Of a DNA stretch of 45,404 nucleotides, positions 228-27,309 are shown in pieces (the first letter of the stretch is position 1; each line of letters opens with the position of its first letter). Where the stretch lies: contig JAFVYW010000110.1 of NCBI GenBank assembly GCA_017508465.1, forward strand, positions 1 to 45,404. The letters are read 5' to 3'. The DNA comes from Clostridia bacterium. Its GTDB lineage: Bacteria; Bacillota; Clostridia; Oscillospirales; CAG-272. The notes below the pieces were generated by a model. It did not search any database. It saw nothing but the letters and a program-made list of their open reading frames with translations, and was not told the origin of the DNA. Made by a program: the position numbers and the translations under genes.

Positions 228-449
228 TTATGCTCTGTAATCGTTTTTCGCTTTGCCGATTTTCTTTCGACGGCGAGGGGCATGCTTGCCTCCGGATTTG
301 CGGTAATCGTCAAGAAGAACCTCCATCGCAGATGCGACAGACCTACGGCGAAGCTCAAGCTCACGCAATTCTCTGCCGCGCTCTGTCGGCGAGATGCTCG
401 AGATCGAGGTGGCGTGTTCTAAATTCTCATAAGCCTTTTTCTTAGCCAT
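228..449 (-). CDS. 73-aa hypothetical protein with a strongly basic C-terminus (HAPRRRKKIGKAKNDYRA)
   Basis: ATG lies 2 nt after the TAA of the giant gene. Its GGAGG Shine-Dalgarno is formed by the last codons (GGA GGT) of that gene, and a terminator follows. I do not recognise a family. Confidence 0.55.
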   Translation of the reverse strand: MAKKKAYENLEHATSISSISPTERGRELRELELRRRSVASAMEVLLDDYRKSGGKHAPRRRKKIGKAKNDYRA

Positions 450-451
450 AA

Positions 452-3400
452 TTAACCTCCTGTAATATTACCTTGCGAAAGCATATTGACAAGTGCCTTT
501 ATACCTTCCCAGATCGGAATACGGAATACCCATACCATGAATACGGCAAGAGCAACGGCAATCAGAACGAAGAACCAGACGGCTGCGCGATCGGCGGGTA
601 CATGACGGCGGTCTGCCGCGGTGCGTATACGCATCTTACGGTCGATTTCGCGTCTGGTACGGCGGAGCGCTTCCTCTGCCTTGCGAATTTCAATTCTCTG
701 TGCTTTGCGCGCAGCGCCACGGAGCTTGAAGCTCGACATCTTCTTTCTTTCCACCTTAACAGCGGCCTCTTCGCGAGCGCATTGGTTGACGAGGGCGAAG
801 AGCTGTTCCTTTTGAGGAATGGTGATATGCAGTTTGCGGATCCTTCTGGTCAGACCATTGTAACGCCTGATCGCGCCATTGTGCGCCGAGAGATACATCT
901 TCTCGAGGCGGACTGCCGTAGCATCGCTACCGCCCTCCACACCGCGATAAAGGGTAAGAATTCTCTCATTGAGTGCGATACGCTCGCGCATCAGCTGCAT
1001 CAGGTCTTCCTGATATGCAACAGCGTTTTCAAAGGTCATCTTCTTGGTGACAAGCTTCGAGGGAGCGAGGGTAAGAAGAGCAAAATAACGAGCGTTGTCC
1101 TGCTTTTCCTGACGAAGTGCTTCCTTCTTTTCCTGCGTCATCTGGCGAATCCATGCCTTGCGCTTCGCAATTTCCTTCTTCGCCTTCCGGGGGTTCAGGG
1201 TATACTGGCGTTCAAGCTCGGTAACCTCGCGTTCAAGCAGGCGAAGCTCCTCTTCATAACGAGCAGAAATCAATGCGAGGTCAACTTCCTCATACTTCTT
1301 GATCTGGCTCTTGGTAAGAGGTGCTTTATCTGCCGCCTTGGTCTCGGCTTTCGCTCTCTTTTCCGCCTTGCGCTTATGCTTTTTGTTCAGAGTGCTGTCG
1401 ATGCGCTGTTGTCTTGCATCACGCTCGCCCTGCAAACGACGAAGCTCGGCTTCACGGCGAAGCTGTGCCGTAGGATCAAGCTCACAATGAACGGCAGGCA
1501 TCGGGTTGTACACCTTGCGTTTTACAATCTTATCGGGGATAGAAGCATCCGCCTGCGGATACTTGTTACCAGTGTAGCGTGTCAGTTCCTTGAGACGACG
1601 GTTATAGGTCTGTATCTCACTCTTGGCAAGGCGCGTATATTTCTTTGTCTCGTGCTTTGCACCTGTGGCAACGCCGGTTTTCAGGATACTGAAATAAACA
1701 TCGCAAATCTCGCGCTCGAGAGCCACAATCGCACCTACAAGAGCGGCATGCGTATCATTTTCAGTTGCCTTCTTATTCTGCTTTTCATAAGCATCCAGTT
1801 GTTTACGCAGAGAACGGATCTGCTTTTCGCCGCCCTTGACATAGGAACGGAACTCATAGCGATCCATCGCTTCCATTTCGAGGTAGTCGCGTGTGACGCT
1901 CTGACGTGTCGTTGCAATAGCGGCAACGCCTTCGTAGGCAGACATTTCGCTCGCCTGACGGCTCTGCGCCTCAACGCGCATGTACTCTTCGGTCTGCGCG
2001 CGACGCTGTGCGCGGGAGACGGCACGGCTTCTGCCACCGAGATTCTCGTACACGGGTTCGGTCGCAAGACCAAATTCCGAGGTAGGAATCAGGCTGATGG
2101 CAGGAATGCTGACACTCGCCTCGGAGAAGTCGGCGATTCTCGGTGCTTCAAAGTCCATACCGCGCGCGACGCGGTCGGCAAGGTTCTTCTGCAGAGGCAC
2201 AAGCTTCCTTCCTGTGACCTTCTTATAGGCATCGCCACACTTGTTGTAGCGGCGAACTTCCTCGGTAAGTTCACTCTTGAAACGGCTCATTTCACGGCGG
2301 AACGCGCTCTCAGTGCGAAGAATGGAGATGGTATCGATTTGCGTAGCGATAATCTTCGCGGTCGTATTACGGACACGAAGAATGGAGGCTGCGCGCTCGT
2401 TGCCATCCAGGGAGGATGTGCGGCGTTCTTCCTTCGCGCGCTCTTTCTTCAGAGCGGTGACGGTCTTCTGCTGTTTCGAGATGTATTCGGAAAGTTGCTT
2501 TGTATCATAGGGTTGCGTTGTAGTAGTATAAAGGCGTTCAGGGCGCTCGCTCTGGAGCGTGGTTGCCTCGCTTGTGCCACGGCGTGTGGGATAGAGGGTA
2601 CCATCGGAGTTTCTCGTAATAACGATATCCTCTGCACCGCCCTGTACCACAGAGGAGGGCGCGAACTCGGCGAGATCGACATTGACCGCATCCAGACGGA
2701 TACGAGGAATGGCTGCCATCGGTACGCCTTGTGCAATACCCTGGGAAAGCTTTTCGGAGAGAGGCGCAATCTTGATACGCTCGCTCTTCGAGAGTGCTCT
2801 CGCATCTGCATTGTATGCGCGAACCTCGGTGTCAATGGCACGGGTAGCGCGCTTTTCAGCCTTCTTCATACCCTGGCTCTTTGCCAGAGCAAGCATTCTC
2901 GCGTTGATTTCGATAATCGCGGCGCGAGCGTTCAGGGAAGCGACGGTCGCAGCGGTGGTCGACTGCTTTGCCTTGCGGGCAGTCAGTCTGGATGCCTCCG
3001 CATTGGCAAGACGGCGACGCATCTCTGTATCCTGACTTTCCAGAGCATGCATCTGCTTCTTCTCTTCCTTACGGGAAAGACGAGCAGGAGCAGAGGCTAC
3101 GGTGGTGTGAGAAGGGATGTAAAATTCCTCGGGCGCCACAGTGGTGGATACCGTCGCCATTGCCTGACGGACGGTCGCACTCTGGACGGGAGAAGGGATG
3201 ATAGCGATTTCTGCTTCCGGCTCTTCGGCATGCATGCGCGAAAGATTGGGAAGTCTGCCTTCCTCAAGGATAGCTACCTCGGGGTTCTTATCCATCGGAA
3301 CGGCAAGCTTACGCTGTTCTTTGGGAAGAGAACGAAGGGCGCTGTTGTATGCCTGCGCTTCGGTACGAAGGGCGGCGGTGGTCTTTCTGACCTTCTTCTG

Positions 3401-6400
3401 ATCACCAAGGGCGTTTGCCAAAAGGAGAACTCTCGAGAGCGCCGTGATGAGATCTGCACGCGCGTTGAGCTCGCGGGCGAGAGGCGCATTCAGAGGTTGC
3501 TTCTGCTTCTTTGCCTGACGATAGGAGAGGGAGGCGGATTGTACCTCGCGACGAAGGGATGTGCTCTCTTTTTCGAGCAAGGAAATCTGCGCGGTAGCGC
3601 TCTTGCGATCGGCGCGGGCGCTTCTGTCTGCCTCGCGGGCAAATTGTGCCTCGCTATGCGCGGTATATGCTTCATAGGCGCGATCATCCGCCAATACGCG
3701 ACGAGGTACCTTCGGCGCTTCCTCTTCGGCGCTCTTGCCCTTTGCCTTTTCAGGCTGCTGTGCGGGGGCACTTGCAACAGGAGCGACAACTCGCGCAGGA
3801 GCGGCGCCAGACAGAAGAATTTCGCTACCCATAACCGTAGCGCCCGTAGCAGCAAGTGCCAGAGCGAGGGCATCGGGACCTTCTTCATAGGTAATCATCT
3901 CAATCGGCTTCTCGCCTTCATCCACACGGAAGGTGGGAAGAGTGGGCAGGGTGCCGGTATTGACAACCGTCGATGCAAGATCACGGGAAATTTCAGGGAT
4001 AGCCGACCTCTTTGCCTTCGGCAACAGACGAAGCGTTGTGTTATATGCACGAGCTTGCTTCGTGATTTCATCCATCGCAGATTTCTGTGTTTTCGTCTGC
4101 GCGAGAACACCAGCGAGAATGGCAATTTTGGAAAGCTCGGTAATCCACGCCGAGCGCGCGTTAAGCTCGAGCGCGCAAGCTTCTTCCATCGCGCCCTTGC
4201 TCTTCTTCGCCTTCTGGGTTTCAGAAGAGGTTGCGAGGACAAGCTGGCGTTTCTTATCGCTTTCCTTCTTTAACTGTGCGAGGGTAGCCAGAGCGCTCTT
4301 GCGATTGGATTTCGCGAGGCGATCGGCTTTTTTACGGTATTGGAGTTCGTTGTAGGCATCGAAGGATGAAAGTGCAATTTCATCACGGGATCTTGGTGCT
4401 TCTTCGGGATTTTCTTCGACACGGGGTGCCTCTTGTACCGTTTCAGAAGCAGGAATGGGCGCAGGCGCAACAGGCGCGCGGCCCTGGAGAACGATTTCAC
4501 TTTGCGCGAGTGCGCCTGCACCGGCAAGAGCGACAGCTGCGGCAATACCGTTGTCCTCTCTCTCGGGCGCGGTGGGAATCATCACAAATTCTTCCTCTGT
4601 GACAGGTTCCGCTACTCTGACACGCGCAATTGCGGGAATGGTGCTGGTATTGCGTGTCTCGTCAACAAGGGAGGGAGAAAGCTCACCGACGGTGCGTCTC
4701 TCTTCTTTGGAGAGAGCGCGCGTTGCTTTGTTATATGCCTTGATTTCGACATGCATTTCCTTCTCGGCGGTCCGTTCGGTCTGGGAAAGACCAAGCGCAC
4801 GGGAGAGAAGCATAACGGTAGCAAGCTGTTCGATCAGGGAAGCGCGTTCAGAAAGCTCCTTCGCCACAGCGGGTGATACAGGCTCCTTCTTCTTTTTCGC
4901 ACCGGCAACCTCTGCGCTTGCCTGTGCCACTGCACGGCGCTGTGCTTTGGTTTGCCTCAGGAGATCATCCAGCGTCTTTTTCGCGCTCTTTCTTTCTGCC
5001 TTATCCGCCTTGGCAAGAGAACGGACAAGACGGCGGTCATTGTGCGCATCGTACTGTGTCCAGGCGATCTCGTCGCGGGAAGGCTTGGGTTCTTCCGCCG
5101 TTGGCTCTGCCCCCTCTGCCTTCGGCTCTTCCGCAGGCGCGCTTTCTGCAGGCGCGGCGGTCTGTGCCATAGGTCTTACAGAGGTAATCACGCGCTCTTC
5201 GGCAGGGGCAGCCTGTGCCGCAGAAGCGGCGGCAACGGCTACGGCACTGACAGGAAGCACGGTCGCGGCAGGAAGCATCTCGAAGGGTTCTTCCTCGACT
5301 TCCTCATAGCGGACACGGTTGATGCTGACAGGTGTACCGGTGGTAAGGGTGGTGTTTGCCAGTTGTTCATCCAGACGAGAAACATCCGCGCGGACCTTCT
5401 CGGGCAGGTAAACAATGGCGGTATTGTAGGCGCGGACCTCGCCGTTCATCTCGGTGAGAGCGCTCTTTTCGACCTTTCCGTCGCCAAGGGCGTGGGAGAG
5501 GACGAGAATTCTCGACAGGGTTTCTACGAGAGCGGCGCGCGCATTCAATTCCTCGATGACGGGAGAGGTCATTTCGGACTTCTTCTTTCTTGCGCGCTTC
5601 GTATTCTCTTTGGCTTTGGCAAGCGCGATGCGCTCTGCCTCCGCTTGCTTCTGCAGGACAATCAGCTGCTTCGACGCGCTCTTGCGGTCGATTTTTTCAG
5701 CCTTTCCTGCCGCGCGAGCAACCACTGCCTCGTTATATGCATCGAACTGACAGAGTGCAAGCTCATCACGGGTAGGCGCGGGAGATACCGCCTCCTCCGC
5801 GGTGCCTTCGGGCGCGGTCTGCTCTTCGCTCGCCGCTTGTGCCGGACGCACGGTGGTGACTACGGTCTCATGAGGCGTGCGTTCTTCACTTGCGCGGGAG
5901 AGCGCCTCGGATACCGTAGGTTGTGCCTCCTTGGGTTGCTCCTGCGCTTCCTCGGGCTGTGCTTCTTCCTGCGCCTGTACAGCCTGTGCGGGTGCTGCCG
6001 CAACAGGTGTTTCAGTAGCCTGTTCTTCAACAGTTTCTTGCGTTGTTGTTCTTTCAGAGGATGCTGCGTCAAGGGCTTCCTCAAGGGTAGTCATCTCATC
6101 AGCAAAGCTCTGCTGTTCGGGGGTTAATCCATTGTCGCGGGTGGTAGGGAGGGCGACGGGTACGATGCGGACGCCCTCGGCATTTTCAGCCGCCCCGTCC
6201 GTATCATTGCGAAAATTTACGCTGTCCCCCTCGGTAGGCGCATCTCCGCCCCCATCGGGTGGCGTGGGAAGTTTTGAAAGAATTTTCGCTTTTTTGTCCT
6301 GAAATGCGCCGAGCTTCTTATCTCTCTGCTTTTCAAGGCGCGTTTTCTTTGCGAGAGCGGTCTCGCCTGCAATCGCCTCTTCATAAAGCGAGGTAAGATC

Positions 6401-8338
6401 TGCAATCGCATAATCGACATCTTCGGTTGCCAATGTCAATGCGGTTTCCGCCTCGAGCATTGCTTCTGCGGCCTTTTCTATGCCACGGGCTTTGCCCTTC
6501 GCCTTTGCTTTTTCTGCCTTGGTGTATGCTTTACCATATACCTTGACTGCGCTCTCAAGGGATACAAGTCCGTGTTCTACGACACCTGCTTGTTTCTTGA
6601 TTGCCTTGCCAAGATCGACAACAACAGGAGCCGCTACAACGGCAGCGCCTTCTTCCGATCTCTCGGGGAGGAAGATTACTCTCGCACGGGCAAGGTCAGC
6701 GACCTGCTCTCTCTTCCAGACCGATTTGATGTAGGTTTTAGCAATCGGGGTGGCGTCGACATTTTCATTTTTAGTTGCTCTCTTATAGCAACTATTATAG
6801 CTCTGGACCTCTTCTTTCAGGGTGTGATAAATCTCACGCGCCAGTGCATTCTTCTTGAATTCCTTCGCGTAATCAATCATCGCGCGAAGATTTTCGATAA
6901 TCTGAATGCGGATGTTAAGCTCTTCCACATAGCACTCGGACTGACGGCTCTTGTCCTCTTTTGCGAGATCGCGGACTTCCTTGATTTCGCGACGAAGTCC
7001 CTTGTTCTCTGCCTTCTTCTCCTTGATGAAGGCGAGCGCTTCCTTCTTCGCCTGCTTGCGAAGGCGTTTCTGCATCGCTCTTTCTGCCTTGGAAAGTTGC
7101 TTCTGATGCTCTGCATCCTCCTCGTAGGTAACACCGCCGATGGTAATCATGGGAGGAACACCCTCGCCTTCTACCTCGGGCGCACCTTCGCCCTGTGCCT
7201 GCTGTGCAGTCTCCTCGGGCTCGGTATATGCAGGCGAGGTTGCCACAGCTCTTGCGTATTCAAGCTCACGCGCATCGCCATCTCCGCGCGCTGCCGCTTC
7301 ACTGCGACGAGCAACATCTGCCATAGCTTCGCTCAGGCTCTCGCGGCTCTCTCTCGCCAGTCTTTCCTCGCGCTCGGCATTCTCGCGGTGGTGTCTTTCC
7401 TCGCGCTCGGCTCTGGCATTCTCCTGCTCAATCATCATCTCAATGGAGCGTCTCTGCGCCTCTGCCTGACGCGCATCTGCTTCCGCACGGCGCGCATTCG
7501 CTTCCGCGCGTTCAGCGCGCATCTCACCGATAAGCTGCATCATCTCACCATTCTGCTGGGGTTGAGGCTGTGGGTGAGGAACAAAAGGAGGCATCATCGG
7601 AGGATAGGGCTCGCTATCAGCGAGAGGATATCCGTTTTCATCCAGAAGAACGATATCATCTCCATCGTCCTCTGCCGCATCCTCGCCGTCAAGGCCAAGG
7701 TCAGAGAGGTCGAAGGTCAGAGGCTCACTCGATGCAGGAGCAGCATCCTCTGCGCCACTCTTGAATTTTTCAAGCGCACTTGCCTCGGGCGCTTTGGGCT
7801 CTTCTTTGGGTTCTTCAACAGGAGCAGCGGGCGCGGGTGCGGGTGCTTCCTCTTCGGGTTGCGCACTCTTTTCGCGCATAGCGCGAAGCATTTCTTCTGC
7901 TCTTGCATTTCTCTGGTCGATTTCTTCCTGCTCACGGCGAAGCGCCTCTTCGATTCTTGCCTGACGCTCTTCTCTTGCGCGAGCCTCGGCCTCTTCTCTC
8001 TGGCGCGCTTCCTCCGCCTCTCTCGCCTTACGCGCCTTCGATCTCTCGCTCTGCATACGCTCGCGATAGTTCTCTGCGTAGGAAAGGGCTGCAAGTTTAC
8101 GCTCTGCGAGGGACCTGGCTGCTTCCTGTGCCTCGCTTCTCTGGCGCTCGGACTCGCTCATACGAGCCTGTGCGCTCTCTTCGGTTTCGCGGAGTTGCGC
8201 GCGTGTCTGCTCGCTCCTCTGTTCAGCCTCTTGTGCCGCGGTGCCAATTCTCTCCTGTGCGTCGGAAAGTCGGGATGCGATTTCCTCCGCGCTCGGAGCA
8301 GGTGCTGCGGGCTGCGTTGACTTTTTCTTTTGTGCCAT
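452..8338 (-). CDS. Giant (~2628 aa) Glu/Ala/Arg/Lys-rich modular coiled-coil protein with one C-terminal transmembrane anchor and no signal peptide
   Basis: Uninterrupted ORF 452..8353. The ATG at 8338 is preferred because GGGAGA lies 7 nt upstream, whereas the ATG at 8353 has no SD. Nine modules share (E)LNAR...E(V/I)xxYN signatures. The hydrophobic segment AAVWFFVLIAVALAVFMVWVF lies 23 aa from the C-terminus. Confidence 0.85.
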   Translation of the reverse strand: MAQKKKSTQPAAPAPSAEEIASRLSDAQERIGTAAQEAEQRSEQTRAQLRETEESAQARMSESERQRSEAQEAARSLAERKLAALSYAENYRERMQSERSKARKAREAEEARQREEAEARAREERQARIEEALRREQEEIDQRNARAEEMLRAMREKSAQPEEEAPAPAPAAPVEEPKEEPKAPEASALEKFKSGAEDAAPASSEPLTFDLSDLGLDGEDAAEDDGDDIVLLDENGYPLADSEPYPPMMPPFVPHPQPQPQQNGEMMQLIGEMRAERAEANARRAEADARQAEAQRRSIEMMIEQENARAEREERHHRENAEREERLARESRESLSEAMADVARRSEAAARGDGDARELEYARAVATSPAYTEPEETAQQAQGEGAPEVEGEGVPPMITIGGVTYEEDAEHQKQLSKAERAMQKRLRKQAKKEALAFIKEKKAENKGLRREIKEVRDLAKEDKSRQSECYVEELNIRIQIIENLRAMIDYAKEFKKNALAREIYHTLKEEVQSYNSCYKRATKNENVDATPIAKTYIKSVWKREQVADLARARVIFLPERSEEGAAVVAAPVVVDLGKAIKKQAGVVEHGLVSLESAVKVYGKAYTKAEKAKAKGKARGIEKAAEAMLEAETALTLATEDVDYAIADLTSLYEEAIAGETALAKKTRLEKQRDKKLGAFQDKKAKILSKLPTPPDGGGDAPTEGDSVNFRNDTDGAAENAEGVRIVPVALPTTRDNGLTPEQQSFADEMTTLEEALDAASSERTTTQETVEEQATETPVAAAPAQAVQAQEEAQPEEAQEQPKEAQPTVSEALSRASEERTPHETVVTTVRPAQAASEEQTAPEGTAEEAVSPAPTRDELALCQFDAYNEAVVARAAGKAEKIDRKSASKQLIVLQKQAEAERIALAKAKENTKRARKKKSEMTSPVIEELNARAALVETLSRILVLSHALGDGKVEKSALTEMNGEVRAYNTAIVYLPEKVRADVSRLDEQLANTTLTTGTPVSINRVRYEEVEEEPFEMLPAATVLPVSAVAVAAASAAQAAPAEERVITSVRPMAQTAAPAESAPAEEPKAEGAEPTAEEPKPSRDEIAWTQYDAHNDRRLVRSLAKADKAERKSAKKTLDDLLRQTKAQRRAVAQASAEVAGAKKKKEPVSPAVAKELSERASLIEQLATVMLLSRALGLSQTERTAEKEMHVEIKAYNKATRALSKEERRTVGELSPSLVDETRNTSTIPAIARVRVAEPVTEEEFVMIPTAPEREDNGIAAAVALAGAGALAQSEIVLQGRAPVAPAPIPASETVQEAPRVEENPEEAPRSRDEIALSSFDAYNELQYRKKADRLAKSNRKSALATLAQLKKESDKKRQLVLATSSETQKAKKSKGAMEEACALELNARSAWITELSKIAILAGVLAQTKTQKSAMDEITKQARAYNTTLRLLPKAKRSAIPEISRDLASTVVNTGTLPTLPTFRVDEGEKPIEMITYEEGPDALALALAATGATVMGSEILLSGAAPARVVAPVASAPAQQPEKAKGKSAEEEAPKVPRRVLADDRAYEAYTAHSEAQFAREADRSARADRKSATAQISLLEKESTSLRREVQSASLSYRQAKKQKQPLNAPLARELNARADLITALSRVLLLANALGDQKKVRKTTAALRTEAQAYNSALRSLPKEQRKLAVPMDKNPEVAILEEGRLPNLSRMHAEEPEAEIAIIPSPVQSATVRQAMATVSTTVAPEEFYIPSHTTVASAPARLSRKEEKKQMHALESQDTEMRRRLANAEASRLTARKAKQSTTAATVASLNARAAIIEINARMLALAKSQGMKKAEKRATRAIDTEVRAYNADARALSKSERIKIAPLSEKLSQGIAQGVPMAAIPRIRLDAVNVDLAEFAPSSVVQGGAEDIVITRNSDGTLYPTRRGTSEATTLQSERPERLYTTTTQPYDTKQLSEYISKQQKTVTALKKERAKEERRTSSLDGNERAASILRVRNTTAKIIATQIDTISILRTESAFRREMSRFKSELTEEVRRYNKCGDAYKKVTGRKLVPLQKNLADRVARGMDFEAPRIADFSEASVSIPAISLIPTSEFGLATEPVYENLGGRSRAVSRAQRRAQTEEYMRVEAQSRQASEMSAYEGVAAIATTRQSVTRDYLEMEAMDRYEFRSYVKGGEKQIRSLRKQLDAYEKQNKKATENDTHAALVGAIVALEREICDVYFSILKTGVATGAKHETKKYTRLAKSEIQTYNRRLKELTRYTGNKYPQADASIPDKIVKRKVYNPMPAVHCELDPTAQLRREAELRRLQGERDARQQRIDSTLNKKHKRKAEKRAKAETKAADKAPLTKSQIKKYEEVDLALISARYEEELRLLEREVTELERQYTLNPRKAKKEIAKRKAWIRQMTQEKKEALRQEKQDNARYFALLTLAPSKLVTKKMTFENAVAYQEDLMQLMRERIALNERILTLYRGVEGGSDATAVRLEKMYLSAHNGAIRRYNGLTRRIRKLHITIPQKEQLFALVNQCAREEAAVKVERKKMSSFKLRGAARKAQRIEIRKAEEALRRTRREIDRKMRIRTAADRRHVPADRAAVWFFVLIAVALAVFMVWVFRIPIWEGIKALVNMLSQGNITGG

Positions 8339-8383
8339 AATGTGATCTCCCATTATATGTATAAATTTTTATTAGCCATCAAA

Positions 8384-9211
8384 TCAATTCGACAATGCCG
8401 TGCCGATCACGGTCGCAAACTGTGCGAGGTGGGGAATGGAAAAATGAATACCGTCATACATGCGGTTAAAGTCCTCGAATTTCTCATGACAGAATTCAAA
8501 CTGTGTGAGATTTCCCGTCAGAACAATCTCGCTCACGCCTCGGGAGCGCGCCGCAAAAATCGCGCACATACCAATGGTTTCATAGACGAGATTCATAATG
8601 CCTTTCGCGATATCCGCGCGTTCGGCAATATCCGACACATTACCGAAGTTCGCCGCGGTAAGCTCGCTCGGAACATCGCCAAGCTTTGTCGCGGAGATAT
8701 CTCCGATACGCAGGTCGATGTTCGCAAGGTTACCACCGCTCGCCAGGTCGACGATATGTTCTACCGTCTCGGCGCCGATCATCAGCTTGGATAGTCCGAT
8801 GAGGGAACCGCCACCGACACCCGTACCGCCGAGGTACTCAATGGTGTCTTTTCTCGCGTGGACAATCGCCGTACCTGTACCCATGCTGACAACAAGGCAG
8901 TTGTCAAGGCCGGAAAGATACAGACCGCCTTTACCAATCGAATCAAATTCGGGGACGCTTACCGTAGGTAAGCCATACATTTCGCGCTTCAGATGACTCG
9001 ATCCGACACCCGTCATCAGAACCTTTTCGATGTCCCGAAGCTCAATGCCGTTGTGATCGATGAATTTACCAAATGCGCCATATGCCGATGTGAGCGGATC
9101 GGTCGCGCTCACAAAGAGAGGTTCAATCAGTACCCGTCTTTCACCATCGTCGGAAAAGCCTACAATCTTTGTCGTGCTTCCACCGACATCAATACCAATT
9201 ACCGTTTTCAT
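8384..9211 (-). CDS. coaW: Type II pantothenate kinase (CoaW-like, ASKHA fold)
   Basis: MKTVIGIDVGGSTTKIVGF, GTGTAIV, GGTGVGGGSLIGL and LTAANFGNV track the remembered S. aureus CoaW motifs (GIDAGGTLIKIV, GTGTSLH, GGIGTGGGMIQGL, LTAANFGHV). SD GGGAGAG lies 5 nt upstream. Confidence 0.75.
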   Translation of the reverse strand: MKTVIGIDVGGSTTKIVGFSDDGERRVLIEPLFVSATDPLTSAYGAFGKFIDHNGIELRDIEKVLMTGVGSSHLKREMYGLPTVSVPEFDSIGKGGLYLSGLDNCLVVSMGTGTAIVHARKDTIEYLGGTGVGGGSLIGLSKLMIGAETVEHIVDLASGGNLANIDLRIGDISATKLGDVPSELTAANFGNVSDIAERADIAKGIMNLVYETIGMCAIFAARSRGVSEIVLTGNLTQFEFCHEKFEDFNRMYDGIHFSIPHLAQFATVIGTALSN

Positions 9212-10833
9212 AATGTCTCTCCCTTCTCCCGAAGCAGTTCATCGAGGGCGAGACCGTATTTCTGTGCGATATCACGGGCGTAGGATTTGCCATCAGGCTT
9301 CGTACGCGTGATAAGGAAGGAGCGTCTACCCTCTTCAATGCCAGCCACCAGCGTATCCAACGCGACACCGCCATAACATGCGGAGCGACGGTTGAGTTCA
9401 TCGACGGTGGAGGCGAGGTCATGCAGATGCGTGGAGAAAATACCGCGCACGCGTCTGGCGCAGAGTGCAACCAGAATTTCCGAGGCGATATAGGTCGCCT
9501 CAAAGGCGCCCGTCGAAGAGAAGGACTCGTCAAGAAGCACCACACTATCTCCGCTCAAGGCGTCAAAAATCTCACGCAGACGAGCGCATTCCTCACCGAG
9601 ACGACCTTTGTCAATCGTATCGTCTGCGCCCTCCGGGAAATGCGTGAAGATACCGTCCGCAACGGACAGCTTCGCATAGTCACAGGGAACAGGCAGACCG
9701 AGTTGGAACATCGCCTGCACCGCACCCATGGCAACGGTGATAACCGATTTACCACCACGGTTGGGGCCTGTCAGTATGTAAATGCCCGCGCGCTCATCAA
9801 ATACGAGGTCATTCGTGACCACACTCTCGGTAATAGCGAGAGCAACGCGAGGGTTGTAAATACCCTTCGTAATAAAGGTTTTGTCCTCCCTCGGCGCGAT
9901 TTCAGGGAAGGTGACATTCGCTTTCTTTTTCTCCTTCAGGGAAAGAAGAAGCTCGGTCGCGCGCGAGAGGAATTCGATTTCAGGAATCAATTGCAGAAGG
10001 AAGTCAGCGTTATCGAGAACATATTCGTCCACAATTGCGTGCCATCCCTTGACGGACGAGCGATACACCTCTTCGATGGCATTGTTAAGTGCGCCGACCA
10101 GAGCCTCCTGGCGGTTATCGCTCTGCGTGCCCTTATTGACGGGTGTCAGGGGAGCAATCGTGGTGAATGCATCGTTGCGGAAGGAGAAGCGCAGAATCTT
10201 ATCGAGAAGCTTTCCACCCTTGAATTGTTCAGAGTTAATGGAGATAACGCCCGCATTGACAGGACGAAGCGTCGCATCCAGGTTAATTCCCACGGTGATA
10301 GAATGAATTTCATGAACACGGGAAGAGAGGGCGTTGAGCTTTTCGTTCAGCTCTTTATAGTACTCCGACTGCGTCAGCACCTCAAGCAGACGGGCAAGAG
10401 ATAAAAACGCATCGCTCTTCAACTGGCCACGAAGGGGAGCAAGCCCTTCCCAAAGCACTTCGATAGCACTGACATACAGTTCAATTTCCGTGATCGAATA
10501 CAGATAAGCGTCCGAACCGCTCTTCTCGTCCTCAAGGACACGCAACTGTCGGATATCATCAAGCACAGGGCGTACCTTCCCGAGCGCCGTGACGAGTTCA
10601 GGAATGGAAAGGCAATCCCCGAAGGTCGAAAGACGATAGCGGATTACCTCTTCGTCCATCGTAAAGAAGTCGCAAAGGGAGACGCCGCGCAGAGCAAAAA
10701 TTTCATCCAGACCAAGCTCCCGTGTGACATCGGGGCTGATGTTTGGTCTATGAGCGCTGTCCTGGTGAGAGAGCTTCGACTGTTCACTCGGGTAAAGCAA
10801 ACTGATAAACTGCTTTTCTACCGTTTCACTCAT
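9208..10833 (-). CDS. MutS-family ATPase (domain III/V core only); no mismatch-recognition N-domain and no Smr domain
   Basis: Walker A GPNRGGKSV, Walker B VVLLDESFSSTG and FSTHLHDL match MutS domain V. At 541 aa it is too short for MutS1 or MutS2. AAGGAG SD is present, and its stop overlaps the coaW start (ATGA). Confidence 0.75.
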   Translation of the reverse strand: MSETVEKQFISLLYPSEQSKLSHQDSAHRPNISPDVTRELGLDEIFALRGVSLCDFFTMDEEVIRYRLSTFGDCLSIPELVTALGKVRPVLDDIRQLRVLEDEKSGSDAYLYSITEIELYVSAIEVLWEGLAPLRGQLKSDAFLSLARLLEVLTQSEYYKELNEKLNALSSRVHEIHSITVGINLDATLRPVNAGVISINSEQFKGGKLLDKILRFSFRNDAFTTIAPLTPVNKGTQSDNRQEALVGALNNAIEEVYRSSVKGWHAIVDEYVLDNADFLLQLIPEIEFLSRATELLLSLKEKKKANVTFPEIAPREDKTFITKGIYNPRVALAITESVVTNDLVFDERAGIYILTGPNRGGKSVITVAMGAVQAMFQLGLPVPCDYAKLSVADGIFTHFPEGADDTIDKGRLGEECARLREIFDALSGDSVVLLDESFSSTGAFEATYIASEILVALCARRVRGIFSTHLHDLASTVDELNRRSACYGGVALDTLVAGIEEGRRSFLITRTKPDGKSYARDIAQKYGLALDELLREKGETL

Positions 10834-10881: not shown

Positions 10882-10910
10882 ATTATATCATATATTTTTT
10901 AGGATTGCAA
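10882..10910 (-). promoter_or_regulatory. SigA-type promoter for the mutS-like/coaW/giant-gene operon
   Basis: The minus strand reads TTGCAA (10910-10905), an exact 17-nt spacer, then TATAAT (10887-10882). This is ~50 nt upstream of the mutS-like start. Confidence 0.5.
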
Positions 10911-11622: not shown

Positions 11623-14600
11623 ATGAAACGAATTTGTCGATTTTCAGCCCTTTTTCTTCTGTTATCGATACTCTTCGTGTCGAGTGCGCTCGCCGTCAGT
11701 AGCACAAATGAGAGTTCGCTTTCCTCCGCGGTCTCTTCCATTCCTGGAGCAAGCCGTAATGCAGAGGATGTGGAAGGCGAAAGCTTCAGCCTGCAGAACC
11801 GTCTGACGCCCGCCATTACGGGAACAGCATTCTCCAAGGGCTCCGTTCCTTCCGCTCTCAATGCCTCCTCTCTGAAATTCGGACATCTGCGCAGCATGAA
11901 ATCTGCCGACGGCAAAAACACCTATGCTGAATGGCGCTTCCACCAGGCCGACGCTACCACCATCAACGGCCGGGAGGATGCTTATATCTCTCTTGGAAAA
12001 CGCTCGTATGATATCACTGAATTTTCTTATCAGGTGCTTGAATTTGACCTGACCACCATGACGACCTTCCCGTCGAACCTGTGGATTTTCTCCGAATGGC
12101 GCGGAAGTGACAGTAGTGGTAAGGAGCGCAAACAATTCGGTTCATACAACGATACGGATGGCCTATGGCACTTCGGTGATAAGACCTACGAAATCAAGCA
12201 GAACGAATGGGTACATATCACGCTGGTGTTCGCCATTCGCCGCAGCGGAACCGACGCCTACAACTTCTCTGAAACCGTAGCGAGAATTTTCATCAATGGT
12301 GAGCTTTACAACGAAATCATTCCATACCCTTCTGCAAATCTTGCGAGTGGTATCGGCATGCGTCAGCATTATATTGGTATCGGCTGGCCGTACGGCAAGG
12401 CGGGCATCCGTACAGGCATGGACGATGATTGCTCCGTCTGTATCGACAATGTTGCCCTGACCACATTCGATCGTTCCACTTACCTCGGAAATCTTGAAGC
12501 GGTCTTTGCCGATGATTTCACCAATCTCGGGGCATTCACAGGTGATGAAATTATTTACTCACCCGCCTACACCTTCCCCTCGGACGCGTTCGCCGTCGCA
12601 ACCGTCACAGATAAGAACGGGAACATAACGCCCTACGCTTCTCTTGAGGCCGCGGTCGCATATGTGGAAAACAATGCTCTCACGGACGCGAAAGTCACTC
12701 TGCTCGCCGACCAATACAATCCGATTGATATCCCTGTCGCGCTTACCCTCGATCTGAATGGTTATACATTGTATGGCGATGCGACAACCTCCGGAAATGC
12801 TATTCTCTCCTCGATTGACGGTAACATCTGGACCTTCTCTGCCGCTACCGTGACTTACACACATATTACAATCTATCAGGCGCCCTTCAGCAATCGCGAT
12901 ACCGCCGTTGGCGATTACCTTCTTGTCAGCGGCGACTCCGTCAGCCTTCCCACACCCGAGGTGTTCGTAAATGCCTCGACTGGCGAGCGTCAGGAACCGA
13001 CAGGCAATTGGCTCGCTTATGATACGCAAGGAAATCTTGTGAGTAATTTTCCAACCACAATTACCGCAAGTCAGCTTGGCAAGAGTTATATCCTTTGCCC
13101 CGAATACCTCTCCTCTTCGGTTGCCTTTACCCTGATAAAAGCAGACGGGACCGTAGAGCAACATGAAACCTTGGACGGACTCTACGCCATTCCGAACGGC
13201 GCTACCGTTATTTTGAGAAAAGACACCCCAGCGTCAAAGTCATTCTATGGTCAGAACTATTACCTCGATCTCAATGGTTATACAGTATACACCCTTGACG
13301 GCGCGAAGGAGGTAATTTTCCGTGGAAAAGGCACTATTTATGTGTATTCCTCGCGCAGCGGGGCGAGAGTGTTCACTGGCTCATATATGAAGAATGGTCA
13401 GACCGATGCTAACGGTAATCCCATTTACACGAACCAGGCTGCATTTATCGTCTCTGATGAAAAAGCTGCATCCGGCACCAGATTCATGCTCGGTTACAGG
13501 AACGCGGACAAAGCAACACCCTATCGCATTGATATGTTCTGTGGCTCATTTTCTCAGCTCGGCGCCATATCAAATGTTTCCGTATACCTGAACAATCTGA
13601 ATATCATTGCGGCCGCTGGTGATAATAAGGGCATTTTCACCACCCGTAACAGTGGCTATACCAATCGCTATTGGCAAATCGACAATTGTGATATACTCAT
13701 CACTAATAGCAAACCACTTACTTCCAATGTCGATGTCGGCAACAATACTGGCACATATGTGTTCAACAACACCAATATCCGAGGCAATGGTTCTCTCTTT
13801 GGTTCGGAAAAAGCCGTTACGGCAGACTGTTCCGTCACCTTCAACAATACCAATGTCTATGGCACACACAGCATCAATGCAGGTGCTGCCTCCTACACAG
13901 ATAGCGCAGGCGTGGTTTATCCCTACACGCGCAAGCTTACAATCACTGGAAAATGCTGCCTTCCTTCTTTCCCCTCCAGTGGTATCTCGCTTCCCGAGGA
14001 CCACATCTTTATTCCCAAGGTCTCCAGCTCCTCGAGTGGTTACTTCGCATATCCCGCTTATGCGCAATATGCAAAATTTGAGACAGGCGAATACTCGACC
14101 ATCGGAAGCTCCTACCAGACAAAAGGCTATGTCGGGCATTTGAATGAGTATAAGGACTCTCTGTTCCAGAGCGTTGCCATTGACACCTCTGTCAATGTCC
14201 TTCTTTACCTGCCGAAGTCCATATCCGTCGAAGGCGTGTATCTCGACGATGTCAATCTTCTGAACCCGACCGCAGCGAAGGTTATCAACGGAGATGATTA
14301 CTTTGTGGTCCGCGTCGCCATTCCTCCGAAAGAGGCTTATCAGGAGCATTCGGTCATCCTTCGATTCAAATCCAGCGATCTCACCATCACCCTGGACGCT
14401 TCCCTCCTGCACTATGCAACAAAGCTTTCCTCCGTGGAAGATACATCAAAAACAGGCACATATTACAAGGACTCCCAGGCATTGATGAAATATGTCCTCT
14501 ATTATATCCGCACCGCCGCTACCTCAATCGGAACGGCTTCCGCATCAGACCTTGCCTCGCTTGATGCCCTCCTTGGTGACTTCACCCTGAGTGCGAGCGA

Positions 14601-15015
14601 TAAAGTACTGACCGAAAGTGTTTATACAACAACATCCGTTACGGGCAAGCTCACCGCCGCAACGCTGAACCTCGACAGTAAGGTCGGCATGGTATTTCAG
14701 GTTGCCGAAGGCTTTATCGGCACAATTCGCGTAGATATGCCCAATGTGCCCTCTGTCGTCAGGACATACACGACAGAGGAGCCCGCAACGAGCACGAGCT
14801 TCATCGTTCTCGCAAATATCCCCGCCTACGCCCTGCGCGAAGATGTCACGGTAACGATTACCCCCTCATCAGGAAGCGCTTCCGTGTTCACCTACAACCT
14901 TGCAACCTATGTCAATGGAACCAAGACCGATATCTCCTATGCCGTTTATGCATATGCCAAGGCAGCGAGCAATTATCGCGACGCGTACCCGACCGCATCC
15001 GTTCTTGATGATTAA
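11623..15015 (+). CDS. Large secreted protein (1130 aa), Asn/Thr/Gly-rich and beta-helix-like; paralog of 32356..35937
   Basis: Signal peptide MKRICRFSALFLLLSILFVSSALA. N-rich repeats include NNLNIIAAAGDN, IDNCDILITNS, FNNTNIRGNG and FNNTNVYG. Blocks shared with the second protein are LDLNGYT, YSSRSGARVF and C-terminal FTYNLATYVNG...AVYAYAKAA. Confidence 0.8.
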   Translation: MKRICRFSALFLLLSILFVSSALAVSSTNESSLSSAVSSIPGASRNAEDVEGESFSLQNRLTPAITGTAFSKGSVPSALNASSLKFGHLRSMKSADGKNTYAEWRFHQADATTINGREDAYISLGKRSYDITEFSYQVLEFDLTTMTTFPSNLWIFSEWRGSDSSGKERKQFGSYNDTDGLWHFGDKTYEIKQNEWVHITLVFAIRRSGTDAYNFSETVARIFINGELYNEIIPYPSANLASGIGMRQHYIGIGWPYGKAGIRTGMDDDCSVCIDNVALTTFDRSTYLGNLEAVFADDFTNLGAFTGDEIIYSPAYTFPSDAFAVATVTDKNGNITPYASLEAAVAYVENNALTDAKVTLLADQYNPIDIPVALTLDLNGYTLYGDATTSGNAILSSIDGNIWTFSAATVTYTHITIYQAPFSNRDTAVGDYLLVSGDSVSLPTPEVFVNASTGERQEPTGNWLAYDTQGNLVSNFPTTITASQLGKSYILCPEYLSSSVAFTLIKADGTVEQHETLDGLYAIPNGATVILRKDTPASKSFYGQNYYLDLNGYTVYTLDGAKEVIFRGKGTIYVYSSRSGARVFTGSYMKNGQTDANGNPIYTNQAAFIVSDEKAASGTRFMLGYRNADKATPYRIDMFCGSFSQLGAISNVSVYLNNLNIIAAAGDNKGIFTTRNSGYTNRYWQIDNCDILITNSKPLTSNVDVGNNTGTYVFNNTNIRGNGSLFGSEKAVTADCSVTFNNTNVYGTHSINAGAASYTDSAGVVYPYTRKLTITGKCCLPSFPSSGISLPEDHIFIPKVSSSSSGYFAYPAYAQYAKFETGEYSTIGSSYQTKGYVGHLNEYKDSLFQSVAIDTSVNVLLYLPKSISVEGVYLDDVNLLNPTAAKVINGDDYFVVRVAIPPKEAYQEHSVILRFKSSDLTITLDASLLHYATKLSSVEDTSKTGTYYKDSQALMKYVLYYIRTAATSIGTASASDLASLDALLGDFTLSASDKVLTESVYTTTSVTGKLTAATLNLDSKVGMVFQVAEGFIGTIRVDMPNVPSVVRTYTTEEPATSTSFIVLANIPAYALREDVTVTITPSSGSASVFTYNLATYVNGTKTDISYAVYAYAKAASNYRDAYPTASVLDD

Positions 15016-22136: not shown

Positions 22137-24713
22137 ATGAAACGAGCCACCATAGGCATCCTCGCGCATGTCGACGCTGGAAAAACAACACTCACCGAGA
22201 GCATGCTTTACCATGTCGGCGCTATCAGACGCATGGGCAGAGTAGACCGTGGCGACGCCTTCCTTGACACGCATTCACTGGAGCGTGAGCGGGGGATTAC
22301 GATTTTCTCCAAGATGGCAACCCTTCCTCTCGGCGATCTTGAAATCACCCTGCTTGACACCCCGGGACATATCGATTTTGTTGCCGAGGTTGAGCGCTCG
22401 CTCGAGGTGCTGGACGGTGCGATTTTAGTTCTTTCCCTCTCCGATCCCATCCGTTCTCATACCAAAACCCTATGGACGCTTTTACGCGCACACCGCATTC
22501 CTACCTTTATTTTCGTCAACAAATGTGACATGCTCCGACGCGGACGCGCCGAAATGATGGAGGAAATCCGCACAGCACTCGGCACGATGTGCGCGGTCGA
22601 TTTCTCCTCGACAAAGACAGACCATTATTTTGAGGATGTTGCTGCCGTCAGCGAACGACTGCTCGGCAAATTCTTTGATGGCGAAGAGATTACCAAAGAG
22701 GATATCTCCGGCGAGATTGCGCGCGCCAACCTCTTCCCCGTCTACTTCGGCTCTGCCCTCTCGGGCGAGGGCGTAGGCGCGCTTCTTGAGGGCATCCGTA
22801 CCTATCTGCCCACGCCAAAATACAGCGATACCTTCGGCGCGAAGGTGCATAAGATTATGCGGGACGCCGATGGCACACGCCTTACCTATCTCAAAATCAC
22901 AGGTGGCAGGCTCAAAACCAAGGACACCCTGAAAATGCGCCTTGCCGATGAGGTTCTTGAAGAAAAAATCGAAGGCATTCGTCTTTATTCCGGTGAAAAA
23001 TACCGTTCCCTTACCGAGGCGGAAGCAGGCATGCTTGTCGCGGTGCAAGGTCTGTCGCGCACTTATGCAGGGCAGGGCTTCGGCGTGGAATACCATGGTG
23101 GCGAGCCGACTTTAACCCCTCTGCTCTCCTATCGTCTCAACCTTCCCGAGGGTATCAACACGCATGAGGCATACCTGAAGCTTCTCGCGTTGCATGACGA
23201 GGACCCTACCCTCGCGCTCGCTTATGACGAGAGCAACCGTGAAATCACGGTAATGCTGATGGGCGAGATGCAGTTGGAGATATTGAAGCGCATCATCTCG
23301 GAGCGCTTCGGTCTTGATGTCACCTTCTCCCATGGCGATATCGTTTACAAGGAGACAATCAAAGAGGCGGTTTTCGGCGCGGGACACTTCGAGCCTCTGC
23401 GTCATTATGCCGAGGTTCATCTGTTAATCGAGCCACTGGAATATGGCGAGGGCGTTGTATTCAAAAGCGAGCTTTCCACCGATATTCTCTCACGAAACTA
23501 TCAGAGACTTATTCTTTCGCACCTGGAAGAAAAAACGCATCGCGGTGTCCTGACAGGCTCTGCGCTGACGGATGTTTCCATTACATTGGTCGGGGGCAGA
23601 GCGCACAACAAGCACACCGAGGGCGGCGACTTCCGCAAGGCGACCTACCGCGCGGTAAGACAGGGACTGATGAAGGCGGAGAATGTTCTGCTTGAGCCAT
23701 ATATGGACTTCATTCTCACGCTTCCCGAAGGGCAAATCGGACGCGCCATGAGTGACCTGGATGCCCTGTATGCAACCTTGGAAGCGCCCGATTTTGATGG
23801 CATCGGAGGCGCAACGCTTCGTGGCTACGCCCCCCTCGCAACCATACGCCACTATCAGAGTGAACTGCGCGCCTACACGAAGGGCGAGGGCGCGATGACG
23901 ATGAGCCTGCGCTCCTATCTTCCCTGTCATAACACCGATGAGGTGGTCGCGCGCTTTGGCTACAATCCTACCCTCGACGAGAGAAATCCGCCCCATAGCG
24001 TTTTCTGTAAAAACGGAACCTCCGTGGTTGTCCCCTGGGATGAGGCAGATGCATGGATGCATGCACCCGTGTTAGAAAAAAGCGCCTCTACCATGCAGGA
24101 AGAAGCGATATCCTCGCCCACACCCGAGTCGAAAAAAACGAGTGGTTACGAGAGCGCCCGCGCTCTTGACAAGGAGCTTCTCGCCATCTTTGAGCGCACC
24201 TATGGTAAAATCAAGCAGAGGAAAATTCACGAGCCGGTCGAATATAAGCCTGAAGAAAAAAAGGTATATAAAAAGAAAAAAGGACCAGCCAAGGAGATTA
24301 TCCTTGTCGATGGTTACAACATCATCTTCGCATGGGAAACACTCGCAAAAATCGCGAAGCATTCCCTCATCGATGCCCGCGACAGTCTTGTACGCATGCT
24401 TTCCAACTATGCGGGATATCGTAAAATCGATATCATTGTTGTGTTCGACGCCTATCTTGTACGCGGCGGTGTCGGCTCTTGCGAAAAGGCAGGAGAGGTA
24501 TTCATTGTCTACACCAAGGAAAAAGAGACAGCGGACGCGTATATCGAAAAAACCTCGGTCGAGCTTGCGAAAGACTATTTTGTCCGTGTAGCAACCAGCG
24601 ATGCGGTCGAGCAGATGATTATTCTCGGCGCAGGCGCATACCGTGTCAGCGCGAGGGAGTTCGAGCGTGAAATACTGCAGGTTGAGGATGAAATTGCAAC
24701 ATTTCTCACATAA
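22137..24713 (+). CDS. Fusion protein: TetM/EF-G-like translational GTPase (aa 1-~640) + K/E-rich linker + Rae1/YacP-type NYN ribonuclease domain (aa 720-858, nt 24294-24710)
   Basis: GTPase motifs are G1 AHVDAGKTT, G2 RGITI, G3 DTPGH, G4 NKCD and G5 GSAL, plus TetM-like LFPVYFGSAL. The C-terminus (EIILVDGYN, VVFDA, ETADAYIEK, VATSDAVEQ, SAREFEREI) parallels B. subtilis YacP/Rae1. AAAGGAG SD is present. Confidence 0.85.
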   Translation: MKRATIGILAHVDAGKTTLTESMLYHVGAIRRMGRVDRGDAFLDTHSLERERGITIFSKMATLPLGDLEITLLDTPGHIDFVAEVERSLEVLDGAILVLSLSDPIRSHTKTLWTLLRAHRIPTFIFVNKCDMLRRGRAEMMEEIRTALGTMCAVDFSSTKTDHYFEDVAAVSERLLGKFFDGEEITKEDISGEIARANLFPVYFGSALSGEGVGALLEGIRTYLPTPKYSDTFGAKVHKIMRDADGTRLTYLKITGGRLKTKDTLKMRLADEVLEEKIEGIRLYSGEKYRSLTEAEAGMLVAVQGLSRTYAGQGFGVEYHGGEPTLTPLLSYRLNLPEGINTHEAYLKLLALHDEDPTLALAYDESNREITVMLMGEMQLEILKRIISERFGLDVTFSHGDIVYKETIKEAVFGAGHFEPLRHYAEVHLLIEPLEYGEGVVFKSELSTDILSRNYQRLILSHLEEKTHRGVLTGSALTDVSITLVGGRAHNKHTEGGDFRKATYRAVRQGLMKAENVLLEPYMDFILTLPEGQIGRAMSDLDALYATLEAPDFDGIGGATLRGYAPLATIRHYQSELRAYTKGEGAMTMSLRSYLPCHNTDEVVARFGYNPTLDERNPPHSVFCKNGTSVVVPWDEADAWMHAPVLEKSASTMQEEAISSPTPESKKTSGYESARALDKELLAIFERTYGKIKQRKIHEPVEYKPEEKKVYKKKKGPAKEIILVDGYNIIFAWETLAKIAKHSLIDARDSLVRMLSNYAGYRKIDIIVVFDAYLVRGGVGSCEKAGEVFIVYTKEKETADAYIEKTSVELAKDYFVRVATSDAVEQMIILGAGAYRVSAREFEREILQVEDEIATFLT

Positions 24714-27273: not shown

Positions 27274-27309
27274 AAAAAGCGTGTTTTCGCACCGAAAACA
27301 CGCTTTTTT
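27274..27309. terminator. Bidirectional intrinsic terminator between convergent mtnN and helicase genes
   Basis: AAAAA-GCGTGTTTTCG-CAC-CGAAAACACGC-TTTTTT: an 11-bp perfect stem flanked by A and T tracts. Confidence 0.75.

Follow-up and report, generated by a model that had tools for sequence, protein, structure and literature searches.

A giant Clostridia protein of eight diverged helical-bundle modules with a predicted C-terminal membrane anchor

Contig JAFVYW010000110.1 of the Clostridia bacterium assembly GCA_017508465.1 was analysed over its whole stretch of 45,404 nucleotides (nt), called the window here. On its minus strand lies a gene for a giant protein, which the original prediction, made from the sequence letters, had described as a 2628-residue array of nine coiled-coil modules. 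Our analysis finds eight homologous modules between conserved N- and C-terminal domains (N-domain and C-domain), with a single predicted transmembrane (TM) helix close to the C-terminus. In the residue numbering used for the parts, the TM helix is amino acids (aa) 2592-2610 of 2633 and the N-domain, aa 6-169, begins at nt 8338. The gene, its parts and the open reading frames (ORFs) opposite it are listed below; HMM stands for hidden Markov model, iE for independent E-value, KD for Kyte-Doolittle hydropathy, pI for isoelectric point, AF2 for AlphaFold2, and dN/dS for the ratio of nonsynonymous to synonymous divergence.

452..8338, minus strand: coding sequence of the giant protein, 2628 aa, stop codon at 452-454 (ORF list, translation, Shine-Dalgarno sequence, homologue N-termini, dN/dS)
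7847..8338 (aa 6-169), minus strand: conserved N-domain, all charged helices, motif AE.klA.leYaENYRkkL (jackhmmer; dN/dS 0.075)
7889-8077 (aa 93-155), minus strand: ER/K-type single-helix-like stretch, the only one in the giant protein (ER/K scan)
7082..7846 (aa 170-424), minus strand: lineage-specific acidic region, Pro-rich PPMMPPFVPHPQPQPQQ plus an E/R/A-rich helical stretch, net charge -35
6671..7081 (aa 425-561), minus strand: module 1, EELNIRIQIIENL ... EVQSYN (seed HMM iE 1.7e-11, family HMM 1.6e-31)
5792..6670 (aa 562-854), minus strand: long lineage-specific acidic linker, 293 aa, pI 4.6
5294..5791 (aa 855-1020), minus strand: module 2, with its TRDELA..FDAYN N-terminal extension; the unit chosen for AF2 modelling (blastp and HMMs)
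4601..5098 (aa 1086-1251), minus strand: module 3 (blastp, seed and family HMMs)
3911..4408 (aa 1316-1481), minus strand: module 4 (blastp, seed and family HMMs)
3215..3712 (aa 1548-1713), minus strand: module 5 (blastp, seed and family HMMs)
2681..3106 (aa 1750-1891), minus strand: module 6 (blastp, seed and family HMMs)
2114..2536 (aa 1940-2080), minus strand: module 7, with ~30%-identical counterparts in other family members (HMMs)
1475..1894 (aa 2154-2293), minus strand: module 8, the ancestral module, which always adjoins the C-domain (HMMs)
455..1360 (aa 2332-2633), minus strand: conserved C-domain, strongly basic (net +28), all-helical, holding the "ninth module" of the original prediction
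524..580 (aa 2592-2610), minus strand: predicted single TM helix VWFFVLIAVALAVFMVWVF, KD 2.84, a helix in AF2, followed by a 23-aa tail
473-4273 (1266 aa), 4952-6127 and 6572-8320, plus strand: antisense shadow ORFs, stop-free opposite the giant gene

The longest stop-free frame on the minus strand runs uninterrupted over 452..8353 (2633 aa) and starts 15 nt 5' of the ATG at 8338. This second ATG gives the better gene model, because a Shine-Dalgarno sequence (GGGAG) lies 8 nt upstream of it and the resulting N-terminus, MAQKKK, agrees with homologues, which start MAQKKK or MAENKK. The product has a mass of ~292 kDa and a pI of 8.8, and Ala (15.9%), Glu (12.0%), Arg (9.2%), Leu (7.6%) and Lys (7.3%) lead its composition, in keeping with its first description as dominated by E, A, R and K. 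Its orthologue P0001 (2811 aa, 71% identity), encoded on an independent metagenome contig (locus L002, 10001-18436), has an intact frame, free of the frameshifts in relatives that had been named as possible grounds for doubt. Codon alignment of the two genes over 2599 codons gave a dN of 0.205 and a saturated dS of ~1.59, for a dN/dS of 0.13. By region, dN/dS was 0.075 in the N-domain, 0.075-0.12 in the modules, 0.10 in the C-domain and 0.13-0.39 in the linkers, with 0.29 for the long linker (aa 562-854); every region of the protein is under purifying selection. Since an 8-kb frame has been kept open at saturated synonymous divergence, chance or composition is no explanation, and the ORF is a real gene for a single polypeptide, as claimed. 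The antisense ORFs match no family and have an odd composition rich in Leu, Gly, Arg and Phe. We rejected them as true genes and attribute their length to the codon composition of the giant gene.

Repeats were compared by pairwise blastp of 170-aa pieces anchored on the xxYN motifs. Modules 2 to 6 (M2-M6) matched one another at 30-40% identity (E 1e-15 to 1e-33), M1 matched M5 (E 2e-7) and M7 matched M6 (E 4e-5). An HMM built from M2-M6 alone recovered M1 (1.7e-11), M7 (1e-5) and M8 (1e-4) and nothing further downstream, and a family-iterated HMM found eight modules of ~140 aa each (E 1e-29 to 1e-42), at aa 425-561, 879-1020, 1110-1251, 1340-1481, 1572-1713, 1750-1891, 1940-2080 and 2154-2293. 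The repetition is real, then, but amounts to eight such modules and not to the nine of ~200-230 aa first counted. The supposed ninth (aa ~2389-2558, with IRRYN) was missed by both the seed and the family HMM and lies inside the separate C-domain, which is unrelated to the module (hhalign probability 2%). Other parts of the first description stood: the xLNARxxxIExL and E(V/I)xxYN motifs occur at the positions given, and the central units, which carry an (S/T)RDE(I/L)A..(F/Y)DA(Y/H)N extension at their start, begin at nt 5791, 5098, 4408 and 3712, spaced 690-696 nt apart where ~690 had been read. The modules are 32-48% identical in DNA (codon alignment), and the giant gene compared with itself gave no blastn self-hits and no tandem array in Tandem Repeats Finder. 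The repeats are old and diverged, and an assembly artefact is excluded, as had been argued.

We modelled a single module, a check proposed at the outset. The AF2 model of M2 (aa 855-1030), computed from an alignment of 41 family modules, is a three-helix bundle (predicted local distance difference test score (pLDDT) 92.3, predicted TM-score (pTM) 0.76) with helices at model residues 8-69, 75-102 and 105-126. Helix 1, of 62 residues, is the Lys/Arg-rich stretch ending in a KKK run; helices 2 (28 residues) and 3 (22 residues) correspond to the ELNAR and E(V/I)xxYN motifs. The bundle is followed by two short helices and an extended tail. The consensus of 386 family modules reads kkeLkkYlk...K..k.l...llve.l...keiie.....L.aa...g.kk...k.kk.L..eI..YN.lv.eY..lTG..Lt....lp..I..G..y..iP.i.Y., and at the end of helix 3 Tyr is conserved in 92% and Asn in 98% of them. 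This near-invariant Tyr-Asn pair points to a functional or fold-critical site, not to generic helical packing. The coiled coil of the original prediction was not borne out: AF2 gives intramolecular three-helix bundles, and the acidic linkers between them are predicted to be disordered. Where a long two-stranded coiled coil of the SMC or Scy/FilP kind would run on, the modelled bundles break every 20-60 residues in the modules and C-domain, and Pfam gave no match to SMC_N or another head domain in the giant protein.

Charge alternates along the chain. The modules are basic (pI 9.0-11.0, net +3 to +14), and the inter-module linkers (36-73 aa, plus one of 293 aa) are acidic (pI 4.1-4.8), Pro/Ala-rich (6-14% Pro) and predicted to be disordered, with linker L7 as an exception (pI 6.4, 4% Pro). 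The same pattern holds in 76 full-length representatives of the protein family described below, where charge per 100 aa is +4.5 in modules (84% positive), +9.9 in the C-domain (100% positive) and -11.0 in the remainder (96% negative). The N-domain is present in 99 of 168 family sequences and the C-domain, all-helical in its AF2 model (pLDDT 89.8), in 138 (jackhmmer); the acidic region of aa 170-424 was found in the giant protein and P0001 only. We rejected the linkers as additional domains, as jackhmmer matched the closest orthologues only. The Ala/Gly/Val-rich stretches reported earlier do exist in the central linkers, as weakly hydrophobic runs at aa 1026-1044, 1270-1288 and 1496-1514 (nt ~5222-5278, 4490-4546 and 3812-3868; 19-aa KD 1.6-1.76). 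After each comes a strand-like motif of the (S/A)E(R/I)V(I/L) type, and similar uncharged runs occur in 28 other family members. They were rejected as TM helices because of this low hydropathy, their Pro residues and the lack of any family member with a second strong TM.

By comparison, the segment at aa 2592-2610 is the only window in the giant protein above KD 2.0. Exactly one C-terminal TM is predicted in 119 family members, none of which has a second (no second window with KD >= 2.0) or a signal-like N-terminus. Across the family, the 20 residues before the TM hold 5.7 Lys plus Arg, versus 1.9 in the tail of ~19 residues. KD scans found no N-terminal hydrophobic segment or signal peptide in the giant protein, whose N-terminus MAQKKKSTQPAAPAPSAEE is not hydrophobic, and the maximum 12-aa KD in the first 41 aa of family N-termini averages 0.21, which bears out the earlier statement that no signal peptide is present. 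The lone TM helix lies within ~50 residues of the C-terminus; this position, the missing signal peptide and the Lys/Arg on the N-terminal side of the TM together predict a tail-anchored topology, with ~2590 residues in the cytoplasm. We consider it likely that the protein is a tail-anchored chain of eight basic bundles on acidic linkers. The earlier picture thus survives as one giant modular protein, but not as a free-standing one, since the C-terminal helix would anchor it; this helix, the conserved N- and C-domains and a 73-aa downstream ORF were absent from its list of parts.

Searches of Pfam, NCBIfam, PHROGs and PADLOC gave no match for the whole protein, single modules, the N- and C-domains, the small downstream ORF or nine single-module relatives; in Pfam this means zero families at E <= 0.1 for the whole giant protein and for single modules. 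Sequence profiles from the PDB, searched with the module, the C-domain and the small ORF, returned designed helical proteins or noise only, and Foldseek found nothing below E 0.04 for the module against PDB and BFVD or for the C-domain against PDB. The protein had been called assignable to no family, and across these libraries, including the searches with single modules that had been suggested, it is. A profile search among 1.84 billion representative proteins found the module in just 178 clusters (154 at E <= 1e-10). Word-prefiltered homologue searches returned only 10 matches for the whole protein and three for the C-domain alignment, as charged low-complexity words swamp the prefilter, and a related-locus search with the giant protein by itself returned none. 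Cluster members with source names are all "hypothetical protein [Clostridia bacterium]". Seven recovered genome loci are metagenome-assembled genomes (MAGs) labelled Eubacteriales or Clostridia bacterium, one of which names yak rectum; isolate codes and sample names suggest an origin of the remaining MAGs in Tibetan livestock and a habitat in the gut of ruminants or herbivores. Literature searches turned up no account of the family, and by these searches the giant protein belongs to a small undescribed family.

The survey of distribution and copy number, another check proposed at the start, showed one to nine modules per protein in a recurring order of N-domain, modules, C-domain and TM, and a gap of 40-50 residues always separates the last module from the C-domain. 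Of the 76 full-length representatives, 42 carry a single module (median 948 aa), 17 carry four (~1600 aa) and a few carry five to seven; the maxima are the giant protein, with eight, and its orthologue P0001, with nine. Counterparts of M7 and M8 at ~30% identity occur in other members of the family, and M2-M6 are confined to the giant protein's sub-lineage. The ninth module of P0001 stems from a recent tandem duplication of a module plus linker (854 nt, still at 81% identity; nt 2320-3158 versus 3001-3851 of the gene). We conclude that the array was built by tandem copying of a ~230-aa module-plus-linker unit and that it is still changing. Sequence comparison thus identifies the giant protein as a lineage-specific tandem expansion of a ~950-aa single-module protein. 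The C-domain keeps only ~25% identity across loci where the MutS-like protein, CoaW, RimP and NusA keep 62-88%, indicating rapid evolution of the family inside one narrow clade.

A promoter match and a terminator-like hairpin bracket an apparent operon of four genes, in which the giant gene comes third:

10882..10910, minus strand: sigma-70-like promoter match, TTGCAA, 17-nt spacer, TG-extended TATAAT, upstream of the mutS-like gene (consensus match only)
9208..10833, minus strand: MutS-domain-V-only ATPase, 541 aa, soluble, no TM (PF00488); first gene of the putative operon, syntenic at 62-87% identity
8384..9211, minus strand: type II pantothenate kinase CoaW (NF009842, 243 bits); upstream gene of the putative operon, syntenic in all loci
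228..449, minus strand: 73-aa basic ORF, starting 2 nt past the giant gene's stop, with a GGAGG Shine-Dalgarno sequence within the giant gene's last codons
175..202, minus strand: intrinsic-terminator-like hairpin, 12-bp stem followed by a T run, closing the putative operon

The best NCBIfam matches of the 541-aa MutS-like protein fall far below cut-off. The position of the small ORF's GGAGG inside the last codons of the giant gene suggests translational coupling, and the giant gene is probably co-transcribed with, and translationally coupled to, the 73-aa ORF. In 12 of 12 fetched loci, three of which were reached via the small ORF, the genes run in the order MutS-domain-V protein, CoaW, CBS-domain protein, family protein, 71-86-aa ORF, rimP, nusA, ylxR, L7Ae and infB, with the small ORF directly downstream of the family member each time. 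The window and L002 lack the CBS gene, and the window keeps the order as far as it reaches. The small proteins form a family of their own (149 clusters, all ~70-80 aa, unannotated; consensus RLERER.KVN.EIE.IL.SYAKESGNRAL..RR....PNDW). Strings resembling "EY..LTG..L" had raised the suspicion that the small ORF is a split-off piece of the module or the C-domain, which hhalign rejected (probabilities 0.4% and 2%).

A mobile-element origin found no plasmid or phage tblastn hits (50,697 phage records), and PADLOC gave no match to a defence system. Nor does the protein resemble a phage tape-measure or tail protein: it has no PHROG match, its best BFVD match reaches E 0.04 at a TM-score of 0.26, and its gene lies in a housekeeping context. 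We conclude that the region is no mobile element. Its surroundings in the window consist of housekeeping genes, and scanning the whole window against Rfam and for tRNAs returned nothing. As a separate observation, in three of the other loci the mutS-like gene is immediately preceded by divergently oriented phage-like genes (large terminase, portal-like; L010 1-2032, L011 1-2639, L012 1-1867), which may be a conserved prophage remnant and are absent at that position in the window.

Several known systems share parts of this design. EzrA, a Firmicutes division regulator of ~560 aa, has an N-terminal anchor and contiguous spectrin-like three-helix-bundle repeats that form a rigid arch. The likeness lies in a predicted cytoplasmic array of triple-helical bundles, a single TM tether, a Gram-positive lineage and a proposed role as scaffold rather than enzyme, whereas the giant protein has a C-terminal anchor, ~140-aa modules with a 62-residue first helix and disordered acidic linkers of 36-73 aa. 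Neither EzrA nor Spectrin matched in Pfam (E <= 0.1, whole protein and single modules) or appeared in the Foldseek results; the modelled three-helix-bundle unit agrees with spectrin and EzrA as a fold class only, and no continuous helices link one repeat directly to the next. ZipA, the 328-aa membrane tether of FtsZ in E. coli, has an N-terminal anchor and one globular FtsZ-binding domain. It shares the membrane anchor, the charged juxtamembrane domain, the long flexible Pro-rich linker and the distal cytoplasmic binding domain, but is of opposite polarity, lacks repeated modules and has no homology to the giant protein. Ebh, a giant surface protein of staphylococci, has a YSIRK signal peptide, an extracellular location, FIVAR-GA helical-bundle repeats and a C-terminal TM with positive charge after it. 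Ebh and Mrp resemble the giant protein in size, tandem three-helix-bundle modules, C-terminal membrane segment and variable repeat number, but its family has no signal peptide, carries its charge before the TM and has no FIVAR, GA or DUF1542 match in Pfam.

Closer in layout are the nesprins (KASH proteins), golgins such as giantin, and plant PICC (PMC3581476), in which a long cytoplasmic chain of helical repeats or coiled coils leads from a conserved N-terminal head to a single TM at the extreme C-terminus with a short conserved tail, and length varies by repeat number. They have no sequence or fold relationship to the giant protein, which is bacterial, without a known SUN-like or Rab-like partner, and strings basic bundles on acidic disordered linkers in place of contiguous spectrin repeats or dimeric coiled coils. 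By analogy, it most closely resembles these eukaryotic tail-anchored giants, in design only. Tail-anchored proteins are documented in bacteria, and share the absence of a signal sequence and the single TM at the very C-terminus, but the described examples are small or ordinary-sized (PMC3087755, PMC6794478); we found no bacterial tail-anchored protein of such size or repeat architecture described in the literature. The giant protein therefore fits the topological class of tail-anchored proteins only and, by sequence and predicted fold, belongs to none of the spectrin/EzrA, Ebh/Mrp, PspA/ESCRT-III or phage tail families.

Our overall best reading, held with confidence that falls somewhat short of even, is a cytoplasmic, tail-anchored, multivalent scaffold or tether; for the scaffold or tether function taken by itself our confidence is lower, and we offer it as possible. 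From the membrane outward, the order would be a basic helical proximal domain, eight bundle modules with acidic linkers, a long acidic region and a charged-helix N-terminal head. The anchor and the basic C-domain would hold the protein on the anionic inner leaflet, and the beads-on-a-string chain could project the head tens of nanometres into the cytoplasm, given ~9 nm for a fully helical stretch of 62 residues and a contour of up to ~20 nm for a 65-residue linker. The basic YN modules may offer up to eight equivalent sites, at which a polyanion (nucleic acid or anionic lipid) or a protein, for instance the product of the small ORF, would bind, so that module number would set reach and valency. 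The blockwise alternation of charge would favour self-association or condensate formation.

Several points weigh against this proposal. The function is drawn from anatomy, and the cytoplasmic location of the bulk is a prediction from the positive-inside rule and not a measurement. High pLDDT is weak evidence of a specific fold, as AF2 is confident about nearly all helical bundles. Some 16% of family modules lack a net positive charge, which weakens purely electrostatic binding, and the model offers no role for the weakly hydrophobic Ala/Gly-rich linker segments. Finally, the conserved neighbourhood spans one narrow clade (NusA is ~80% identical between loci) and is of little help on function.

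A more specific version, which we regard as unlikely, would make the protein a bacterial counterpart of nesprin- or golgin-like tethers, that is, a membrane-anchored molecular ruler that, with its 73-aa partner, captures a cytoplasmic structure and positions it at a set distance from the membrane. Candidates for this structure would be the nucleoid, ribosomes or nascent transcripts (rimP-nusA-infB adjoin the gene) and a storage body, and evolution would tune reach and valency through module number, from 1 to 9.

Among the alternatives, the one that survives best, though improbable, would make the protein an Ebh/Mrp-like fibril or adhesin on the cell surface, with bundles outside the cell, wall-spanning Pro/Ala/Glu-rich linkers and a C-terminal membrane anchor. 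A C-terminal TM combined with repeated three-helix bundles would suit such a protein, as would the acidic Pro/Ala/Thr-rich linkers, which resemble the wall-spanning regions of Gram-positive surface proteins, the fast evolution of the C-domain relative to neighbouring genes (~25% versus 62-65% identity) and the variation from one to nine modules. Yet neither the giant protein nor any family member has a signal peptide or N-terminal hydrophobic segment with which to be exported, the positive charge sits on the N-terminal side of the TM, and Pfam and NCBIfam gave no FIVAR, GA, LPXTG, SLH or other wall-binding domain. A content of 29% Glu, Arg and Lys and an ER/K helix are, moreover, typical of cytoplasmic proteins, and the other genes of its operon encode cytosolic proteins.

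Still less probable is a membrane-remodelling or -stabilising polymer of the PspA/Vipp1/ESCRT-III kind, in which module hairpins would polymerise on the inner leaflet. Vipp1/PspA entries (7o3x, 8qbs, 6zvs) and the Vps4 MIT domain (2w2u) are among the top Foldseek matches in the PDB, and basic helices adjoin the membrane anchor, but those matches are non-significant (E 0.85-2.8, TM-score 0.24-0.36, root-mean-square deviation above 20 A for Vipp1). Pfam gave no PspA_IM30 or Snf7 match at E <= 0.1, and ESCRT-III-type proteins are soluble subunits of ~220 aa, not tail-anchored tandem arrays. The idea that no functional single protein exists, the ORF being an over-long product of biased composition, misassembled repeats or a decaying gene, is hardly credible and already largely refuted: the stop-free antisense ORFs (e.g. 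473..4273, plus strand, 1266 aa) show a composition that suppresses stops, and the protein has no database annotation or expression data, but dN/dS is 0.13 at saturated dS across the full length, the same architecture recurs in all 76 full-length representatives, repeat collapse cannot have built an array with 32-48% DNA identity and zero self-hits, the start has its Shine-Dalgarno sequence and a coupled ORF downstream, and the antisense ORFs themselves are unmatched and odd in composition.

To our knowledge, a giant protein in bacteria is nearly always a secreted adhesin, toxin or synthetase, and a ~290-kDa cytoplasmic, tail-anchored helical-bundle array would be unusual. The head, the YN module, the basic membrane-proximal domain and the small partner have no relatives in the libraries searched and therefore represent new domain families; the protein is built from domains new to databases, which is not yet the discovery of a mechanism. 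If it is a tether, it would bring a new component to the subcellular organisation of bacteria, in a clade of uncultured Clostridia from herbivore guts. Were it to act as a ruler, three protein domains would be added to those known, along with a novel mode of cytoplasmic organisation in bacteria, and even as a merely lineage-specific structural protein it would still give domain databases a clean new family. The occurrence of 1, 4 and 5-9 modules in otherwise syntenic genomes provides a natural series for asking what repeat number does to function.

Other genes in the window also merit mention. Two large proteins have no Pfam family, one of 1130 aa with a clear signal peptide (11623-15015, plus strand) and one of 1193 aa (32356-35937, plus strand); a 1128-aa counterpart of the former adjoins the same operon in L002. 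An 800-aa DinG/XPD-type helicase (27335-29737, minus strand; DEAD_2, HBB, Helicase_C_2) is overlapped by ORFs on the plus strand (27281-28153, 28217-28729 and 29318-29845) that match nothing and are unlikely to be genes. The coding sequence of a glutaminase-A-like protein is broken up over two neighbouring ORFs (42284-43165 and 43220-44338, minus strand), of which the upstream one carries DUF4964, DUF5127 and positions 3-75 of the six-hairpin profile and the downstream one positions 100-343; the break could reflect a frameshift, mark a pseudogene or stem from an error in sequencing. At 22137-24713 (plus strand), an 858-aa protein joins an EF-G-like GTPase (GTP_EFTU, EFG_III, EFG_IV, EFG_C) to a C-terminal YacP-like NYN nuclease domain, an unusual fusion.

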